64,000 nt of DNA from Octopus sinensis (lineage: Eukaryota), in contig NW_021832227.1 in the NCBI RefSeq assembly GCF_006345805.1, positions 372,001-436,000 of the forward strand, written 5' to 3'. The translations under genes and the position numbers were made by a program. Position 1 is the stretch's first letter; the number at the start of each line of letters is the position of its first letter. A model generated the notes under the pieces. That model saw nothing but the letters and a program-made list of their open reading frames with translations. It made no database searches and was not told the DNA's origin. Shown here piece by piece: positions 5,359 to 52,552 of the stretch.

Positions 5359-20875
<15,517 letters not shown>

Positions 20876-21691: not shown

Positions 21692-21828
21692 TTAATTAAA
21701 TTATTTGTTAACTTTGAAAATACAATAATTTTTCTATTAATCTGTAAAATTGTTAATTTATTGTTGAATTAATTTATTTATCAACTTTTTATAAAATAGG
21801 TTTATGTTTACTCAAAACACTACAAAAT

Positions 21829-22599
21829 ATGCTTGTTGATGTTACAGAATATTTACTTCCACTTGGAATCTTTATTGTATCCTTATTTTTCTATCTAATT
21901 CCTTTCGTCACTAAAATAATTCATTCAAAATCAAAATTTTGTTCAAATTTATCTAATGAGTGCTTTGTAGATGGAATTTTATGCACATTAACACTAACTA
22001 TATTCATTCCGGCTTCTAATATGTCATATAAAAACGCATTGAACTGCTTTTCATTTAAAGATAAATTTTCTTTGGATGCTTCAGTATTCATTGTGCTCAT
22101 ATTTTTTATTATTCTTCTTATTGAATCCATATTTTTGAAAAGCCGTAAGAAAAATAATGGAAATTCAAACGACTTTTTTGTCTCCTTTTTAGCTATCACT
22201 ATCCACTCTTTCTTTGATGGAATTACTATGGGCCTTCAAAAACATACTGAAAATTTGATTCCTGTTTTTTTCGGTATCATTTTTCACCGAATTTTTGTTT
22301 CAATGGCAACCGGAGCCAGAGCATCTGCTAATTGTTTTACCATTAAAATCCAGGCAATTTTGGCTTTAATTTTTTCTACTTCTTTTTTGGCGGGAGTTAT
22401 GTTGGGATTTTGTAATTTTCAGAGACAGTATGTATGCTACGGAAGAATTTTTGAAACTGTTGTTAATTCCTTAGGTTCTGGTTTTCTTTTATACGCCATC
22501 TTTGTACAGAAAATGGGACAATATGCTGGAACTCCAAAATATTGCTTTTGGGCTTTCATGGGAGCCTTGTCAATGATTTTTATTCAATGCTTATTTTAA
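21829..22599 (+). CDS. ZIP (SLC39) family zinc/metal transporter, intronless
   Basis: Multi-TM 256-aa ORF with ZIP signature AITIHSFFDGITMG, TM5 GIIFHR and GFLLY. Confidence 0.85.
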   Translation: MLVDVTEYLLPLGIFIVSLFFYLIPFVTKIIHSKSKFCSNLSNECFVDGILCTLTLTIFIPASNMSYKNALNCFSFKDKFSLDASVFIVLIFFIILLIESIFLKSRKKNNGNSNDFFVSFLAITIHSFFDGITMGLQKHTENLIPVFFGIIFHRIFVSMATGARASANCFTIKIQAILALIFSTSFLAGVMLGFCNFQRQYVCYGRIFETVVNSLGSGFLLYAIFVQKMGQYAGTPKYCFWAFMGALSMIFIQCLF

Positions 22600-23275
22600 T
22601 TTTTTAATTGGTATACAACCTATATTTAGTATATATTGAGTACATTAGAAAGTAACATCTGTCATATAATTAAATTTCCTGTCTATTACAATAATAAGGG
22701 TCTGCATCACTTAAATAATATTAATACAGACAAATACTTATAATTTATGAAAGTAACTCCTTAGAAGATCTGGTCGAGACTATGTTTTGGTATTATTTAT
22801 TTAGAAATTAGTTATAGTTTGTAGATATATCAAGATCATAGTGACCTTGAAATTATTTTCGTTAGAAATTATTTTTGGCAAGGTCTGCGATGTTGAATAA
22901 TAAATATCTTTTTAAAGATTAATTTTGAAAATATTGATTAATAAATTTGTGACTAGACAATCTTATAATCTATAAGCTCGAACTTTTGAAATCTGTATAT
23001 TAAAAACAATTGATTCTGTATATCTTAGGTTTCTTTAATTGAATGTGATCTAAAATATCATGTTTAGAAAATTAATTTTATATTTCATTAATCATATTAA
23101 ATTGATTTCTATAATTCATTCACTTTTGATCTGGTGTAAATTTAATGTCAAAAAGACATAAAATTGGAACTAATTAAGACACGCAGGAGAACGGATTGAC
23201 AGATAATTGCTCCGGGGAATGGAAAAAAGAATCTTTTCAAAAAGCCAGCTCGTCTCGTTGCGGTTAAATGTTCTA

Positions 23276-24127
23276 TACCCTTCCAAGTTCAATATGGGAA
23301 TTTCCAAATTCAATATGGGATTTTCAAGTTCAAGGATTTTCAAGTCGGTTATTGAATTCATTTATTAATTTAAAATCGCCTTACATTATAAAATGTACGT
23401 TAATAAAAAGAAAGAATTAGCTGAAAAAAGAAAAAATTTGTTGACTGTTTACGAAAATGATGGGGATTGGAATCAAGTTGCATGTTCTCTCGGAATAAAA
23501 AAAACAACTGCATACAGGTGGATAAAAGAAGGCTTTAAGGATGATTCAAGAGGTGGTTTTCGATATTCAAAAATTTCAAATACCGTACTTGAAGAAAATG
23601 AATTCACAGAAAACAAAATACTTCGACTTGCACCTTACAGTCCAATGTTAAATCCAATCGAACAAATATGGTCTAAAATGAAAGCTTTTGTAAAAAGAAA
23701 AATGGCTGAAAATCTTGGGAATATCTTAGATAGAAATGAACCTGACTTGTCAAAAACAGAATTTCGGAAACAGAGATTCGAGGATTTAATTAAACAATCT
23801 ATGGACGAAGTTACTCCAAAGATTTGTGCTAAGTTAATAGCCAGAATCCAAGGACTATTGCCTTCTTTATTAAATTACAAGGACGTAACATTTTAATTTT
23901 TCCGTTTGATATAAATGAGTCATGATTTTTTTTCAAATATTTTAAAATTAACTTGGAAATCCCATATTGAATTTGGAAAATCCCACTTTGAACATGGAAA
24001 TCCCATATTGAATTTGGAAAATCCCACTTTGAACATGGAAATCCCATATTGAATTTGGAAAATCCCACTTTGAACTTGGAAATCTCATATTGAATTTGGA
24101 AATTCCCATATTGAACTTGGAAAGGTA
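23276..24127 (+). mobile_element. Internally deleted IS630/Tc1-mariner element
   Basis: ~45-bp TIRs (tacccttccaagttcaatatgggaatttccaaattcaatatg and reverse complement), TA flanks, ORF 23393-23896 fusing an HTH to LAPYSPMLNPIEQIW. Confidence 0.85.
23950..24120. repeat. Subterminal tandem array of alternating 19/20-nt units (39-bp period) in the Tc1-like element
   Basis: aaatcccatattgaatttgga and aaatcccactttgaacatgg alternate, about 8-9 units. Confidence 0.9.
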
Positions 24128-24739: not shown

Positions 24740-24830
24740 AAAAAGTAACTATTTAGAAATAAAACGTCAGAGCTAAGTTTAGACAATCATGTAACATCAT
24801 TAAGTATTTTCATCATACAGAAAATAGTTT
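24740..24830 (-). repeat. Dispersed diverged monomer of the 135-bp C/D-box-like repeat
   Basis: aacgtcagagctaagtttagacaatcatgtaacatcattaagtattttcatcat matches the array unit at 40835-42051. Confidence 0.85.
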
Positions 24831-29982: not shown

Positions 29983-30170
29983 GTCGCTTCTCGGCCTTTT
30001 GGCTAAGATCAAAGTGTAGTATCTGTTCTTTCCAGCTTTATATCTGGGACGCCCTTACACGGGGCAAGATATAATGCTTATTTTTGTGCCTTGGTATGTG
30101 TTGCGAAGCTTGCTTCCTCCATACCACGCGTCCTCCCGGTATTGCAGTACTTCTGGGTTGGGCGCATTCC
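29983..30170 (+). ncRNA. U2: U2 spliceosomal snRNA
   Basis: gtcgcttctcggccttttggctaagatcaaagtgtagtatctgttctt 5' domain with branch-recognition GTAGTA, stem IIa ttccag/ctggga, IIc complement agatataa, Sm site atttttg and loop IV attgcagt. Confidence 0.97.
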
Positions 30171-30425
30171 CTCTTGGGAGTTTTTATTCTATCAACGTGG
30201 TTAGCAAATCTCTAGTTTTTATTTATCATTTCTTTACTTTCTAAGCACTAAGACACACGTTATATGATGCCATTGACGTCTACGTTCTAGGGATCTTAGC
30301 GGGTGTAACTTAAAAATCACGACAGTCCTTCGCGAGGTCTCTGTGCTGAGTCCCACACTTTTTAATGTCTTTATGGCTTCCGCGCCCATACCAGTCAATA
30401 CTCGTACTGAAATGGTGATCTATGC

Positions 30426-39081: not shown

Positions 39082-40834
39082 GTCTAAGACATCAAAAAAT
39101 TTCCATACAACGCTCGACATGTTAAAAAAAATATTTAATTACATTTTTAATAAAATAAATTACATATAAATATATTTTTATGTATAATATAATGGCCGAT
39201 TAATCGGTATCGGTGAAATTGGCCGATAATCGGTAATCGGCAAAATCCAAAAATGGTTATCGGTGCATCACTACTAGTAATTATATAAAGACAGGGCATA
39301 CTCGTTGATTGCTTTGAAGAGGTTCGCTGAGTTTAGTTTTGTCTTTGCTAATCCAATAACTCTTTTTTTAACATTCTCGAAGATTGTCTCCAACACTTTT
39401 TGTTTTTGTACATTGCTTCCCCGGTCTTCAAGCACTCCTAGGTATCGATAGCCTTCGATTCCATCCAGAGTTCTGCAGCTCTCCAATGATTCTAGATTAG
39501 TCGCAGACTTCTGAGAGTTCATTTCAAGCCCCGCAACTTCAAAGTACTCAACAATAGTATCCATCATTTTAATGACAGTTTCTTCTTTGTGTGCAAGAAT
39601 CTTTAAGTCGTCAACAAAAAATAGGTGGTTCGTAGAGTATGCCAGCATACTGGGGTCTTGCTGATCTATCCACAGCTTGGGAAATTTGGAATTAAGTATT
39701 CTGCTCAGTGGATCCATTACCAGTACGAACAATTGCGGGGATAAGGCGTCTCCTTGTAGAATTCCACAATTCAATTTAACAGCCCCAATTCTCTTTTTCC
39801 CGAAATGAAGGCAAACTGTCCACCTCTCCACCAGACTTTTTATAAAGTTGGTTATCCATAAAGGAATTCCCGAGCAGTCCAACACATGAAACAGGAATTC
39901 GTGATCCACCGAATCGAAGGCTTTCTTAACATCCACCCATGATGCACAGAGATTATTGCCATATTCTCGATTTATGCACTGATTGATAAGGGTTTGTTCC
40001 TTAGCACCCTGACATGTCTCCTCGTCCCCAATTGATTTTCAGAGACCAAGCCGAACGCATCCACATAGTCAGAGAGTTTGATGTTTACACATTTTGTCAC
40101 AAGTTTATAGAGAGCAGGCATGCACGTTATTGGGCGCAAATCACGGGGATTTTCACAAACTTCTTTCTTCGGAATCATGTAAGTGACGCCCGTATAGAAC
40201 CAGTCTTCAGGGATGTGTTCCTTATTAACTATTCTGTTCACTTCCCGACACAGGTATCCATGTAGTGAGTCAAATCTTTTGATGAAGAAATTATACACTC
40301 CATCGCATCCACATGTCTTCCAGTCGTTGGACCACTTAATGGTCTGTTTAATGAATTCCTCAGTTAACTCCGAGGGTGCACTCTCGATACCGGTGACCCT
40401 CCTGTCACGAACCCAGCTGGCTTAGGAGGGTTCTTCTTGGACCAGACCTGCTTCCAGAAGGACAAGCAATCATTGTCACTGAACTCAAACTCAGCGAGCA
40501 TCTTATCTCCTGATACTTGCCTATAAAATCTTTTCCGATTCAACTCGAAGCACCAGTCTATCCTTTCGAAATTCGGTCCTGGATTTATGCATCAATATCT
40601 TCTTTTCTTTTATTCGAATCATATCTTGTAAAAATGCAAAAAAATATAGAGAAAAGATTATCAAAAAACAATGATTAATTACTATATTTAAAGTCTTGTT
40701 TTTTTAAATAAATGTTTCAGATGTTTATTTAAATGTTCAGAATCATTCAAATAAGTAGTTAAAAATTATAGAAAATTTTTTACAAGATAGGATATTGATT
40801 ATTTCTCTTACTCGCCAATTTTGGCTTGACTGTA

Positions 40835-42051
40835 TTTAAAAATAAAACGTCAGAGCTGAGTTTAGACAATCAAGTAACATCATAAAGAATTCTCATCATT
40901 CGAAAAATAGCTTAAGCCATTCGAAATAATCAAAAGTATGTTAGGTAAAAGAATAATTACAAGTAACTATTTAGAAATAAAACGTCAGAGCTGAGTTTAG
41001 ACAATCAAGTAACATCATTGAGCATTCTCATCATTCGAAAAATAGCTTAAGCCATTCGAAATAATCAAAAGTATGTTAGGTAAAAGAATAATTACAAGTA
41101 ACTATTTAAAAATAAAACGTCAGAGCTGAGTTTAGACAATCAGTAACATCATTAAGCATTCTCATCATTCGAAAAATAGCTTAAGCCATTCGAAATAATC
41201 AAAAGTATGTTAGGTAAAAGAATAATTACAAGTAACTATTTAAAAATAAAGCGTCAGAGCTGAGTTTAGACAATCAAGTAACATCATTAAGCATTCTCAT
41301 CATTCGAAAAATAGCTTAAGCCATTCGAAATAATCAAAAGTATGTTAGGTAAAAGAATAATTACAAGTAACTATTTAAAAATAAAACGTCAGAGCTGAGT
41401 TTAGACAATCAAGTAACATCATTAAGCATTCTCATCATTCGAAAAATAGCTTAAGCCATTCGAAATAATCAAAACTATGTTAGGTAAAAGAATAATTACA
41501 AGTAACTATTTAAAAATAAAGCGTCAGAGCTGAGTTTAGACAATCAAGTAACATCATTAAGCATTCTCATCATTCGAAAAATAGCTTAAGCCATTCGAAA
41601 TAATCAAAAGTATGTTAGGTAAAAGAATAATTACAAGTAACTATTTAAAAATAAAACGTCAGAGCTGAGTTTAGACAATCAAGTAACATCATTGAGCATT
41701 CTCATCATTCGAAAAATAGCTTAAGCCATTCGAAATAATCAAAAGTATGTTAGGTAAAAGAATAATACAAGTAACTATTTAAAAATAAAACGTCAGAGCT
41801 GAGTTTAGACAATCAAGTAACATCATTAAGAATTCTCATCATCGAAAAACAGTTTAAGCCATTTAAGATAATTTAAAGTATGTTAGGGAAATGAATGATT
41901 AAAAATAACGTCAGAGCTGAGTTTAGACAATCAAGTCACATCATTAAGAATTCTCATCATCGAAAAACAGTTTAAGCCATTTAAGATAATTAAAAGTATG
42001 CTAGGGAAATGAATGATTAAAAATAACGTCAGAGCTGAGTTTAGACAATCA
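40835..42051. repeat. Tandem array: 7 units of 134-135 bp, 2 of 118 bp and one partial
   Basis: cagagctgag recurs at 40851, 40986, 41121, 41255, 41390, 41525, 41660, 41794, 41912 and 42030. Confidence 0.97.
40848..40902 (-). ncRNA. Candidate minimal box C/D guide RNA (first of 9 complete tandem copies) antisense to the 28S rRNA PTC
   Basis: Minus strand reads CG-AAU-GAUGA...GUCUAAACUCAGCU-CUGA-CG; the guide is complementary to conserved LSU AGCUGGGUUUAGAC with one G-U pair. Confidence 0.5.
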
Positions 42052-42504
42052 TTTCATATCATGACATATCACTCATCTTTCGTTAAACTAAAATATGCAG
42101 GTGAAATGTATTTCATTTAATTAGTAATATCAAATTAAATAACGCACACAACAAAGAGAACAACAAGATAACGCGTGATTTATGCTTTTTATTTATAGAT
42201 ATATTGTAATTTATTATTTTACATTAATTTATATAAAATTTTAACAAACTAATTAATGCAAGTCAAAAAATTACCCCTGCCTATTCCAGTTGATAATCTC
42301 TCAATGTTTTCACTTGTTTATCGTTATTTTCTGCATTTTTTTCAAATGGAAAAGTAGTTATTTCAAGCGATCTCCTTCGTCATCTGTCAGGATCCTAATA
42401 AGTCATAAGTTGCAGTGGAGATTTTCTGTTTTTAAAGACCAGCTGATTTTACCCGATATTCTTATTTGCTCGTTTGTAATTTTAATACTTTATTAATAAA
42501 AAGA

Positions 42505-42870
42505 AGATGCAGTCCAGCGCCTCTCGGTGACTAAACGTCAGGAAAAGACTGGATCGGCGAGCATCAAATGAGATACTCTCCAGAGTCTTCTTAACTACAG
42601 TTGACTGTATATAAGCCTGTAAAGACTTATCTACACCCAGCTGTCTTAAGTACCCCTTGTGGTATTTAGTGACTAGTCCATGTCATCACACGCGGAATGA
42701 CATGAACCTAACACTGGTGCATCAGCCCTAACTCGTTTGCAAGGAGGTCATACTTTATCTTTTTCTCCACTTCCACTGTCTGCAAACGATCTAAAAACGT
42801 GATGCCCACTTCAGCGATAACTATCTCCCCGGTGACCTTATAGTGGACCACAACATCAGGTCTTTGCTCG
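42505..42870 (-). mobile_element. 3' fragment of R4/Dong-like element
   Basis: RPDVVVH..EVGIT..KYDLLANELGL, near-identical to 36135-36510. Confidence 0.85.
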
Positions 42871-43038
42871 TTTATAATGTATGCGATAGTAGTAATCCAG
42901 ATTAAGATCGAATTGTGGTTGAATGATAGATCGTAGATGATCTGCCCAAATAATTTTAGCGACAAATGGATCTGAAGAGGTTTTTAAGTTTTATCGACGA
43001 TGGGCACTTTCTATTTTGTTAATATCGATCGTTTAGAA

Positions 43039-43560
43039 CAGCGGTTCTCAAATGCGGCCCCCGGGGCCCACGATTTTTTTTGCGGCCCCTCTAGAGTAAC
43101 TAACTTTTTTAATTTTTTAATAATGTTTAAATTTAATTATTCATTCTTAAGGTTAAACATATCCATAATTGGTGATTTCATTAATCAATTTGAAGCACGT
43201 TTTGGGGTACATTTATATAAATTTAATTTTTAGAATTTTAAAGAATTCCTTCCTTTAATGAAAATATTCACAACTCCATTCAGCGTGGAAATTAAGGATG
43301 CGCCTGCAAAGTTTCAACTAGAACTCATTAATTTACAACATGATATAGAACTGGCGGCCATTATTAATTTTTACGAATTAATTCCTCAAGACAAATTCAA
43401 AAATATAACACACAATGCATATATGAATCTACATATTTATGCGAATCAATATTTAGTAAAATGGAAAATATAAAAATATATAAAATATTTTTTGTGCGGC
43501 CCGCGAAGCTAATCTTAATTATCGATTTGGCCCTTGAGCTAAAAAGGTTGAGAACCCCTG
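43039..43560 (+). mobile_element. Non-autonomous hAT (Buster group)
   Basis: TIRs cagcggttctcaa/ttgagaacccctg, TSD gtttagaa, remnant FQLELINLQ. Confidence 0.88.
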
Positions 43561-45056
43561 GTTTAGAATAACAAGATCCTCCTTATTTTGATTGGCCCTT
43601 GAATCAGATTGCTGATAGTCAGACAACTACTTTTTTCCCTGACGTGTGATTTGAGCCAACTAAAAAACATTTATAGGTCGACGAATCGGAGAAGAAGACC
43701 AAGTGATTAACAAGATTTTCAACCTTCAGATTGTACAAATTTGGCAAAAAATCGCTGCTTTCGTTCCATCCGTAATTAAAAAATATACATTCTTAATAAT
43801 TATTGATTAAATATAAATAATAGTTAAAATAATTGATATATTAAGTTGAAAATGCTTTTTTCTATGTGATACATGATAAATATTTCAAATAAACAGATAT
43901 CTGTATAATTTTTAACTCAAATAAATAAATAGAACAAAAAGTTATGTCTACCTCCTAACCAAACGATTCCCATACTTCAATCAATGATACAAGATAAAAT
44001 TCAAGGAGTTATGTACTGTGTAAACTGGAGACATTTTATAGCATTATCGATAAGAATAGAAGTCTATTGTGCCATGCTGGAGATGAAAAATTCAACAATT
44101 CTTTTTTTGTTTATACTGTTTTGGATATATGGAATATTGAATGTAAAATGGAATGGATTGTAAATAATGAATCGCCAGATATGATTATCGCTAACTGCTC
44201 TGTAAAAAATTAATTAGATTTATCACAGGAAACAAATTTTTCAATGACGAGTCTTTGGGATGTTTTTATTGTTATCTGCGGAAAAAAGTCGCCTCCTGGT
44301 TTATTAATGTTAAAAGTAAATATATTTGAATTAATTAAAGCTGACCAACTTAAAAAATCGTCTATCGAAATTTGGATATTTTGAAGATTAAATTGATTAT
44401 TTGTTTAAAACAGCAAATAATTCTATAAAGTTTTTATTTTCACTTTTTCTCGCGTACTTAGCTTAATATTTGTATAATTTTGTTACACGAATTAGTAAGT
44501 CTTTTATTACATTTAAATCAAGAATAATATTCTGAGCTAAACTTTTTTAAGGATAAAATAGTAAAAAATTGTTCTAGGTTTTATAATTTTGCTGTGTTTT
44601 GTATCTTGGTTCATCCTCATTCATTGTCGTCTACTTGTAGTTTAATGAACCTTCAAAAAAGGCAAGCGTGTACGCAATTTGTGAGTTTTGTTACATCCTG
44701 TCTCCTAAGTATCCTGTGCGCCTTGATCGGCATAATTTTTAAAAAAAAACACATCTTACCCTTTTATTGCATTTGCCAGAAAGTGGAACCTGCACAATTT
44801 TAGATCCCTCTATTACAGAACCAAGGCAAAGTTACCCTAGAAAACTTCATATTTGATCTCTAAGAATTATATCACTTGTTCAATTTCTCGCTCTGAAATT
44901 GTCAAAAATGTGTCAATTGCCAGCCAAGTGGCTTTTGAATATAAATAATTGATCGGTTTATTGCCGATCTTGTGGATTTAAGCGCGTATAAATTGAAAAA
45001 CAATGGATTTTGGTCATTGTTGACTCTCACCAAATTTGGTGTGGTCAGGCTACGTA

Positions 45057-46291
45057 CAGTGACTCCTCTGAAATTGGCCATTTTTGGTTCCACGTGTTTT
45101 TGTGGTCAATTCGAGAAATGGCCAATTTGAGAAATAAAATCAATCTTTTGTGTAAATTAAATTTTGAATAAGAACAACTTTTATCCAGAAAATTTTAAGT
45201 AATTAAGCATTATTAATGTTCTTAAAGTAGAATTGGATGCCCATCTGCTTTTTTTGAGTTTTAATGACATTTTCCTTATAGCACCTTATGGATGTAATCA
45301 ATTGAACTTCATGTTCGTTCTCAATGTTTTTTAGGAGGTCGTTTTCAATTTTAGTTAACTTAACCACAATGTCTTCTTTGTCAATTGAATCATTGGATTC
45401 TACTTCATTGAATTCTACTTCAGCTTCTACTTCTTCTTCATTTTTTATATTTTCAATATTCTCAACGTCTTGAAATGTATCATTTTCAGAATATTCAAAA
45501 TTAAGAAATTCTTCGACTTCTAAGGGATCAAAAATGTCAGTTTTTCTACTGCAATATCTTGAACTTCAACTACATGATTCTTTTTGAATGGGTTGCTTGA
45601 TATTTCTATGAATTTTTCGATAAATAAGTCGACATCTACTGGATCATTAGTTCTCATTTCTCCATGTAACTTGGTCATTCGAAAACCATGCCTCTTTTTG
45701 AATTTATGAAGGTATCCATTTGAGTTTTTAAAATTATCCAGTTTTAATTCAGCTGCGAATAAATTAGCCTTATTTGAAATTAAAGCATCATTAAGAAAGC
45801 CACCTTAATCATAAATTAGTACAAATTACCTTTAGACTCAATCGAATCCATCCATTCAACTAACATAGCATCAAGGTGTGGGAACTTAAGTCTATGCGCA
45901 TTTTTTGAAGATAGATTTTGTTTTTTACACACTTTGAGAAAAAAATCTTTTTTTCAAAATAATATTATTAATTGTTTTTCTGGAAATCTTCTTTTTAAAC
46001 AAATGGGAAAATCTATCAGCCAAATACTGACATGAAACATCTTCATTTTGATTTTTATAAGTTAAAATCTGTATTTTTTGATAAAAAGTGAAACGAGTAT
46101 AATTACCACGAGAATTGTTCGAAGACATAAAATAACAGGAATTTTATTAATTTGCAAATTATATAAAATATATTTTAAAATTTATGGTCAATTTGAGAAT
46201 TGGCCACTTTCAATGGAAATTCGAATTTTTCTTAAGATAATTTTATAAGTGTGGTCAATTTCAGAGGTGGCCAATTTCAGAGGAGTCACTG
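45057..46291 (-). mobile_element. pogo/Tigger-like deletion derivative with a 26-nt intron at 45804-45829
   Basis: 24-bp TIRs cagtgactcctctgaaattggcca, TA TSD, CENP-B-type HTH FKNSNGYLHKFKKRHG..LHGE. Confidence 0.9.
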
Positions 46292-47419
46292 TATTATTGT
46301 CAGGGAGCGTGGAATTTTCAATGTTTCTTTAACTGAGCCCAATTCTCTGCCAATTTTGTTTAAAAGAATTTGAATTTTTTGCTAAGTAAGTGGATAAACT
46401 ACGCGTTTGTTGCTTCAGTGACTCCTTTCCACTGCTAAAATCAAAGAATATTCTAGAAAGCAGGAACAAAACCTGCTATTGATTGGTCACAAACCTCGTT
46501 TTGATTGAATGGTCGGATTTCCGTTGTTTTTGAACTCGACATAGTTTCCTTTTTGACAGATTTTTTGTTAAATGTGAAGATATCTTTTTTATCCCGAATC
46601 CGGTCCGACGCAGTCGTGAATATCGAGTGCATTCCCAGGTTTTCTAAATCTGGGGTTCAAGCGAACAAGCATGCTTATTCTCTAATTTGAGTTGCCCAAA
46701 TATGTCTGCCTCATAAAATTCCGACCTCACGGATTGTTGTTCTGCATGTTAAATTAGTGGTTTCTGCTTGTCCTACTCCGACAATCAAATGGAGTAGTAC
46801 TTTTCACCACCTTTTGGTGAAACCTCTGAACTTTTCGGTGCTATTTTTAGTCCTCGACTCCATAATCAGTCAGCCATTATAAAATATAATTAGAGTTTTT
46901 AATTTCGCTTCACAATTTTAAAATGACTCGTCACTTGACGCCAATTCATCCTGTAGTTTGGATTCCTGTCCTACTCAGGTTTTATTTTAGTTCAAATCTT
47001 GATAAAATTAAAAATGGCATTCGACAAATAACACATAACTGCACCGCAGAACTAACGCTGTCCTGGAGTACACACTCGCTAAGAAGGGAGTGCAATGGCA
47101 TTTCCACGTATGGAGGACGCTTTTTCCCCAGGTTTTGCTGGACGGTACCACCTGTAGCCCACTCGGAAGACATTCCACGCTTCGGCCAAGCTGACTCGGA
47201 TGCTATTAGCAGCTTAGCGGACTTTGTCGGTGAAGACGGTAACTCGGATGTTATGTTTGATTTTAACTGGAGCTCTTTTTTGTGCTTTTTACGCTAAGTT
47301 TAAGTGGAATTTTGAAATCACAATAATGAAAAAACCTTTGAAAAAACCTTTTTTTAAAGTCTTAAAGTAAGTAATCTATTTTATTTTAAAAACAGAGACA
47401 GTGACATAAATTTTTGACG

Positions 47420-51561: not shown

Positions 51562-52552
51562 TGTGACCGGTTGAATACGAGCCCAGGTTGAATACGAGCC
51601 GTTAAACGAGCCGTTAAACGAGCCGTTAAAGTGGCGTAAGTGGCGTTATACGAGCCGTGAATGCCGTTAATTCATATTAGGGTTAGGGTCAGGGTTAGGG
51701 TCAGGTTTAGGGTTAAAGTCAGGGTTAGGGTCAGGTTTAGGGTCAGGTTTAGGGTCAGGTTTAGGGTCAGGTTTAGGGTCAGGGTTAGGGTCAGGTTTAG
51801 GGTCAGGGTTAGGGTCAGGGTTAGGGTCAGGTTTAGGGTTAGGGTCAGGTTTAGGGTTAGGGTCAGGTTTAGGGTCAGGTTTAGGGTCAGGTTTAGGGTC
51901 AGGTTTAGGGTTAGGGTCAGGTTTAGGGTTAGGGTCAGGTTTAGGGTTAGGGTCAGGTTTAGGGTTAGGGTCAGGTTAGGGTCAGGTTTAGGGTCAGGGT
52001 TAGGGTCAGGGTTAGGGTCAGGTTTAGGGTCAGGGTTAGGGTCAGGTTTAGGGTTAGGGTCAGGTTTAGGGTTAGGGTCAGGTTTAGGGTTAGGGTCAGG
52101 TTTAGGGTTAGGGTCAGGTTTAGGGTTAGGGTCAGGTTTAGGGTTAGGTACGTTATTAATGCCGTTAAATCATAATTTTTTAATGGAAAAAAACTATTTT
52201 GAATATAATTTATGTTGTCACTTGCCAACGTTAGGGTTTGTGTTAAGGTAAGAGTTAAGGTTGTTACAAAGTTGCCAAAAAATTAGATGTAAATTATAAT
52301 TTGCTAATGTTGCAATTTTTATTATCGAAAATAAAAATAATTCACATTATAATTTGCTATTGTTGTAAATAATTTTACTATTTTACAGCAAGCATGGTTC
52401 AAATATAAAACATCATTTTTTCAAAAATTTAAAGTTCGTTCATTAGTTCGGAACGTTTGTCTTTATATTAATTGGCCTCTTGAATCGGTCTATTAATTAT
52501 CGATTTTTTTAGCGGCTCGTATTCAACCCTATCTCATTATGAACCGGTCACA
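51562..52552. mobile_element. Non-autonomous TGT..ACA element with internal telomere-like array
   Basis: TIRs tgtgaccggtt/aaccggtcaca, TSD tgtaa, repeated acgagcc subterminal motif. Confidence 0.88.
51677..52148 (+). repeat. Telomere-like hexamer array (TTAGGG, TCAGGT, TCAGGG; 12- and 18-nt higher order)
   Basis: Directly visible, about 470 bp. Confidence 0.97.

Follow-up and report, generated by a model that had tools for sequence, protein, structure and literature searches.

A tandem array of compact box C/D snoRNA-like units, probably from a co-sequenced short-intron parasite, with a predicted target in the peptidyl-transferase region of 28S rRNA

Is a short tandem repeat on the minus strand of an Octopus sinensis contig merely a satellite, or does it encode a small RNA that acts on the ribosome? 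The repeat lies in a stretch of 64,000 nucleotides, hereafter the window, and the original prediction read it as a series of box C/D guide RNA units antisense to the peptidyl-transferase centre. Judged from sequence, that reading of a predicted function has gained support from the anatomy of the units, from their pairing with the cognate rRNA and from constraint among the copies. We favor, as the probable explanation, a compact box C/D snoRNA gene belonging to a co-sequenced parasite with short introns, predicted to guide 2'-O-methylation at the equivalent of yeast 25S G2950.

The array is indeed a tandem one on the minus strand, with 10 copies of guide plus box D and unit bodies that span 40850-42079 (Table 1). 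TRF describes it as a 135-bp unit repeated 9.0 times at 40833-42027 and an overlapping 118-bp unit repeated 2.4 times at 41779-42062. From one copy to the next, with box D ends running from 42029 down to 40850, the periods are 118, 118, 134, 135, 135, 135, 134, 135 and 135 bp. An array had been placed at 40835-42051 and is present there, but it extends to 42085 and is one unit longer; similarly, the uniform 135-bp unit first described captures seven periods of 134-135 bp but not the two 118-bp periods at the 5' end.

Table 1. Features of the array and of its solitary paralog, in window coordinates.
Feature	Coordinates	Strand	Remarks
Whole array, 10 C/D-like units head to tail	40845-42085	-	two 118-bp, seven 134-135-bp periods
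5'-most unit, distinct type, other spacers	42024-42085	-	body 42029-42079; stem 42081-42085 with 42024-42028; box C AAGAUGA, D', C', guide and box D as in other units
Unit 2 body (118-bp type)	41911-41960	-	
Unit 3 body (118-bp type upstream spacer)	41793-41842	-	
Unit 4 body	41659-41708	-	
Unit 5 body	41524-41573	-	
Unit 6 body, reference unit	41389-41438	-	
Unit 7 body	41254-41303	-	
Unit 8 body, 49 nt	41120-41168	-	1 base missing at C' start
Unit 9 body	40985-41034	-	
Unit 10 body (3'-most)	40850-40899	-	
Box C AUGAUGA, reference unit	41432-41438	-	invariant in 14/14 non-first units
Box D' AUGA, reference unit	41419-41422	-	invariant in 17/17 copies
Box C' UUGAUUG, reference unit	41406-41412	-	last G is 14th guide pair; 3/7 columns vary, 17 copies
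D guide, antisense to 28S peptidyl-transferase region	41393-41405	-	41397 is D+5, predicted to face G2950 equivalent
Box D CUGA, reference unit	41389-41392	-	invariant in 17/17 copies
Near-palindrome abutting box C	41438-41464	-	7/10 units; not supported as processing signal
Solitary paralog, 16 kb away	24767-24816	-	C-to-U at D+5 base

Each body comprises, over 49-51 nt, box C, 9-10 nt, AUGA, 6 nt, (A/U)UGAUUG, 13 nt and CUGA. The antisense element reported directly before box D stands there with the same letters throughout: GUCUAAACUCAGCU, followed by CUGA, is identical in 10/10 units of the array. Box C reads AUGAUGA in nine of the 10 window units and AAGAUGA in the other, and box D is CUGA in all 10. 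An internal D' box (AUGA) and C' box (A/UUGAUUG), 6 nt apart and overlooked at first, are present in every unit type; the A of D' and the U at the sixth place of C' can pair, in the position held by C-G in the consensus. The D'/C' reading applies general motif rules for C/D RNAs. Box motif rules of this kind are laid out in a section of PMC7994747.

The ends of the units are less regular. A CG-AAU-GAUGA...CUGA-CG register had been proposed for all of them and is found in 7/10, where it provides a terminal stem of 2 bp (CG/CG); two units of the 118 type are 1 base short before box C, leaving the stem out of register, and the 5'-most unit instead combines AAGAUGA with a terminal stem of 5 bp. 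The predicted fold of this last unit, in which the stem encloses the C/D motif, has a z of -2.4 and is more stable than 195/200 shuffles; the unit with the best stem is also the one with a U-to-A change at box C position 2. Predicted folds of the units with a 2-bp stem pair box C with the upstream hairpin. That hairpin, formed by the near-palindrome abutting box C, is present in 7/10 units and absent from the rest, and we reject its proposed role as a processing signal: with z values of -0.8 and -1.4 it is no more stable than shuffles, and it would pair box C itself. Overall, the array appears, with reasonable likelihood, to resemble a C/D methylation guide in all the sequence features tested except a firm terminal stem.

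To which genome such a guide would belong can be approached through rRNA. An exact 15-nt rRNA word has 61 matches in the 2.7-Gb assembly, and their flanks reveal two kinds of 28S: type 1, mostly on chromosomes, and type 2, on unplaced contigs. Rfam calls the type-2 loci eukaryotic LSU and SSU rRNA, and matches to type-2 28S occur on 13 unplaced contigs at 86-100%, against 76-83% for long chromosomal matches. Of the type-2 rDNA loci (42 kb), 4/8 share repeats with the window, three of them at 91-96% and the fourth at 66%; of the control loci (86 kb), 0/24 do. Candidate introns of about 23-30 nt, picked by eye from reading frames, interrupt both the dynein gene of the window and a fibrillarin gene (PF01269, above cut-off) on contig C1794, where type-2 rDNA is found as well. 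Because the window repeats are common only to type-2 loci and the introns measure 23-30 nt, the window likely derives from a co-sequenced short-intron parasite rather than from the main organism of the assembly, and tests against host rRNA would therefore mislead. Among animals, according to one section of PMC13644364, introns this short have been reported solely in myxobolid myxozoans and dicyemids; excerpts of PMC6543705 and PMC6736024 give a median intron of 27 bp for Dicyema sp. and a G+C of 36.7% for D. japonicum, a figure that the 36% of the window fits. From these two properties, intron size and G+C, we infer a dicyemid-like parasite. A clade check by literature and motif search yielded no diagnostic 18S primer, and one with the ZIP zinc transporter (Pfam) encoded at window 21757-22599 (+) gave 0 matches, and no sequence relative, among 788 candidates. 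A second eukaryote is likely present in the assembly at large, on C8698, C10908, C1794, C6303, C12762 and others, with its own rDNA type, short introns and shared repeats.

With type-2 28S, the rRNA linked to this contig and likely the organism's own, the guide pairs 14/14 by Watson-Crick rules, and the matching base is present at every one of the 7 readable type-2 loci, on 3 contigs. The other readable 28S copies carry, in 17/18 cases, the base that gives a G-U; hence the 14-nt pairing originally described stands, but its single G-U arises only against host 28S. Duplex energies are -22.8 (type 2) and -21.9 kcal/mol (host), and with so small a gain, what counts is that the guide fits the cognate variant rather than how stable the duplex is. 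The D+5 rule predicts as target the G equivalent to yeast 25S G2950 (E. coli G2581, by offset from U2552/U2921), in line with the earlier expectation of a site beside Am2946 and Cm2948 but distinct from both. For this stretch, Table S4 of PMC11014333, which covers fly, human, yeast, Arabidopsis, Xenopus and Dictyostelium and whose numbering agrees with G2950, lists Am2946, Cm2948, Um2953 (Arabidopsis only) and Cm2959, with nothing at 2950; Table 1 of PMC8817022 agrees in having no 2950 site. A literature search for snoRNA work on G2950, G2581 or Gm4497 found none. Beyond this six-species map, the site may be methylated in Euglena, with its heavily modified ribosome, in trypanosomes or in archaea.

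A second guide was considered and rejected. In several units, the segment between C and D' and its neighbors can form 9-12 pairs, G-U included, with the 5' end of type-2 28S, but this pairing runs into D' and does not keep one register across the unit types. The segment varies freely and likely guides nothing.

How does the array compare with guide RNAs already described? Rfam, to which the original prediction had looked for a check, yields no family that reaches its gathering score (gathering and E-value thresholds). The best repeated likeness is snR69 (RF00475), at 16.9-20.4 bits in 7 units, aligned over the guide, against a cut-off of 50; snR71 scores 16.7 bits against 60. Yeast snR69 (Cm2948) and snR71/human SNORD29 (Am2946), clan CL00051, are likewise C/D guides antisense to that 28S stretch. 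In the array, however, box D is placed further along the target than in those RNAs, by 2 nt relative to snR69 and by 4 nt relative to snR71, so that D+5 falls on G2950 instead. The array guide precedes D rather than D', and the array unit has 50 nt where the snR69 and snR71 families have 94-97 model positions. The array is not a member of any of the three.

A closer parallel comes from archaea. A scan of prokaryotes returned 70 matches, 14 of which are one conserved C/D sRNA, mostly of Methanomassiliicoccales (13 by the strict pattern, 1 variant). Like the array, it has the same 10-nt guide core before CUGA, the same register and predicted target base, and the full C-D'-C'-D layout, with 47-51 nt from box C to box D. 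Unlike in the array, that guide precedes D' while a second guide precedes D, each match holds one copy, and there is no likeness outside boxes and guide; the resemblance is likely one of convergence. Sections of PMC7994747 and PMC4644070 put archaeal C/D sRNAs at 50-70 nt, and the latter describes helices 90-93 as a hotspot of predicted archaeal methylation, as well as convergent guides. The dual-guide sRNA of Methanomassiliicoccales, 47-48 nt long and conserved at 14 loci, is an observation in its own right; our literature search found no report of it. In metagenomes, the 17-nt guide plus box D had 85 matches, four with a loose box C-like word upstream, and no convincing snoRNA among them.

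Multi-copy snoRNA arrays include SNORD115/116 and the clusters of trypanosomes and Euglena, although SNORD115/116 have, to our knowledge, no rRNA guide. These arrays, and a SNORD31-type cluster of the host, resemble ours in that one C/D gene has been amplified locally into near-identical copies. The host cluster, on chromosome C6 (4140757-4150263), holds 8 near-identical SNORD31/snR67-type C/D copies of about 65 nt, 0.6-2.4 kb apart. Our array differs from the known clusters in its period of only 118-135 bp, its head-to-tail arrangement and a genome whose ordinary introns are too short for a snoRNA. In essence, multi-copy arrays and 50-nt guides are each already known, and the novelty lies in the tight head-to-tail array, the unmapped target in the catalytic centre and the short-intron host. 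If the RNA is made, it would illustrate one way in which a short-intron parasite expresses guides, at near-archaeal size, and it would predict that the catalytic centre bears a ribose methylation missing from the six-species map. The idea that guides can arise from antisense rRNA could also be tested on the array; should the array be silent, it is a curiosity.

Other guides of the parasite were sought with four guide-pattern searches of the assembly for conserved sites, which found no guide RNA on a parasite contig. The Am2946/Cm2948 pattern gave 17 matches, all on chromosomes; that for Cm2959 gave 1, without box C; that for Gm2619 gave 15, including the 8 of the host cluster and 1 on an unplaced contig, in host-like DNA without box C; and that for Gm2815 gave 5 unplaced matches with no box C within 60 nt upstream. 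Recovery of the 8-copy SNORD31-type cluster indicates that the method works. As the patterns are strict and the parasite assembly is perhaps partial, these results are no proof of guide loss. In the literature on snoRNA in dicyemids, myxozoans and orthonectids, the word snoRNA is absent among the matches listed.

Further copies allow constraint to be gauged. A block of approximately 5 kb that takes in array copies has a duplicate on this contig, 36 kb downstream and 98.7% identical (window 41507-46437 versus L048:4049-9001). We compared 10 copies from the array, 5 from the duplicated block and the solitary copy at 24767-24816, with 17 copies entering the constraint test; the 10 identical array copies on C10908, a second haplotype-like contig, were left out. 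Uniform divergence across boxes, guide and spacer, which would have told against a guide RNA, is not what the copies display: over 17 copies, 6/35 columns vary in boxes and guide versus 11/16 in internal spacers (p 0.0005), a contrast that weakens to 5/35 versus 6/15 (p 0.054) without the two units of the 5'-most type, and the p values are a guide only, since alignment columns are not independent events. Within the guide, 0/13 columns vary over 15 array copies. The solitary copy has changes in its guide, one of them at D+5, and its allele on C10908 is further changed in C', guide and stem; on account of the D+5 change and this more damaged allele, it is likely decaying. An RNA-model scan of 30 sequences (338,779 bases) recovered the 17 known copies and 3 rDNA guide-site matches, and nothing new.

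Where the units came from may be reflected in their 3' half, which aligns with antisense type-2 28S at 23/24 bases, with one 2-nt insertion. In a post hoc test, a redrawn tail reached that alignment score in 84/20000 trials, which favors the birth from antisense rRNA suggested at first. On the other side, the box consensus dictates the C' portion of the match, the sequence following box D forms the terminal stem of the 5'-most unit, and in the host an ordinary gene of SNORD31 type likewise aligns to rRNA past its guide. Birth from antisense rDNA, for which scattered type-2 rDNA fragments supply material and which is compatible with a present function, is in our estimate a tentative proposal, somewhat unlikely as it stands. 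A more elaborate version, which we consider unlikely, would have the guide RNA observed in the course of being born: an antisense piece of parasite 28S, 26 nt long, acquired box D by a 2-nt insertion and C' by point changes, then gained C and D', and was amplified as an intron-free polycistron that places a lineage-specific methyl group in the peptidyl-transferase centre, giving snoRNAs without intron hosts to an animal with 25-nt introns.

The same alignment can be turned against a functional reading. The array might be a silent minisatellite, seeded by an antisense 28S fragment or a dead snoRNA, whose boxes are relics or accidents and which yields no RNA. The near-complete match to antisense type-2 28S, the presence of such fragments on the 13 unplaced contigs, the transposon-rich setting, the decaying solitary copy and the borderline constraint among closely related units alone would all suit it. 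Yet C and D' lie outside the rDNA-like block, and their sequence and their spacing both persist across two types of unit with spacers that disagree at most positions; the guide is invariant in 15/15 array copies; we regard silence as fairly improbable. Chance resemblance in an AT-rich repeat, or a coding-exon repeat with mini-introns, is far less probable still. AT-rich, ATGA-rich sequence gives degenerate boxes easily, a genome-wide scan tests many repeats, and both strands of the unit contain GT..AG stretches of 21-32 nt. When one unit was dinucleotide-shuffled 20000 times, a 15-nt match of any kind to type-2 rRNA turned up in 34 shuffles; in 2, a 14-nt match stood before CUGA, and 1 contained box C as well. 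In addition, 294,756 bases of other parasite-assigned contig DNA contained 0 candidates with box C, a guide of at least 10 nt and box D. A 13-nt match of the spacer to 18S in non-guide orientation (E 0.024) illustrates that short rRNA matches do arise by chance, and since a scan of many windows will meet 1-in-20000 events, further evidence matters. The match of the guide to the cognate rRNA variant also speaks against chance. A coding repeat was rejected, the longest stop-free spliced reading being 40-42 codons over 1256 bases even with mini-introns allowed.

It is also conceivable, though improbable and slightly less likely than a silent repeat, that RNA from the array does bind pre-28S but serves chiefly to chaperone the folding of helices 90-93, or directs methylation to a shifted base, with high copy number serving dosage. 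The predicted site is missing from the map of six eukaryotes, the pairing could be lengthened by the tail that follows box D and by part of C', one Drosophila snoRNA family has been assigned to both Am3478 and Cm3480, and the pattern search of the assembly found no parasite guide for the conserved Am2946/Cm2948. Against this stand the canonical box D directly after a perfect duplex, the archaeal sRNA in the same register, and the fact that D+5 cannot reach 2946 or 2948. We retain the methylation guide for the G2950 equivalent as the preferred reading.

For that methylation guide, expression is the step that calls for a model. No host gene or promoter was found for the array, and both flanks consist of transposon fragments: a non-LTR retroelement (RVT_1) lies about 200 bases beyond the 3' end, and on the 5' side, at a distance of about 250 bases, there are pieces of retroelements and MITE-like sequence. 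The 135-bp units carry an acceptor-like AG after box D and a GT 6 nt later, but the search for a host gene recovered neither an exon nor a protein match; a host that is non-coding and has micro-exons is conceivable. Animal C/D snoRNAs are mostly excised from introns, and introns of about 25 nt cannot hold one. For microsporidia, a passage in PMC6349667 calls intronic snoRNAs unlikely because introns are short, and in archaea, according to a section of PMC7994747, the boxes alone suffice for maturation from any transcript. Short introns and box-only maturation lead us to favor, by inference, read-through transcription with trimming to a protein-protected core. A minus-strand precursor would run through the array; Snu13, Nop56/58 and fibrillarin would bind the C/D and C'/D' motifs and shield about 55-60 nt; and nucleases would trim the AU-rich spacers. 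The D guide would then pair with pre-28S, and fibrillarin would methylate the base facing D+5. Local slippage or unequal crossover, together with one segmental duplication, probably produced the copies in this transposon-rich DNA, and not all of them need be active.

Several minor features of this DNA deserve mention. The dynein heavy chain gene, at window 5794-20618 (+), is interrupted by numerous candidate introns of about 23-30 nt, whose donor sites are weak and one of which seems to be GC-AG; despite the shortness of introns in this genome, a full-length U2 snRNA (153.9 bits) is encoded at 29983-30172 (+). Truncated pieces of type-2 rDNA are dispersed through the assembly; one of them (L044) fuses the 5' part of 18S straight to the 3' part of 28S, and in another (L066) ITS1 is followed immediately by what we take to be a histone H3-like fragment. 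A 41-bp tandem repeat with a 21-bp sub-unit sits at 23950-24123, at the end of a Tc1-like element, and recurs in opposite sense at 23269-23341. Finally, an interstitial array at 51677-52148 mixes TTAGGG and TCAGGG telomere-like units.
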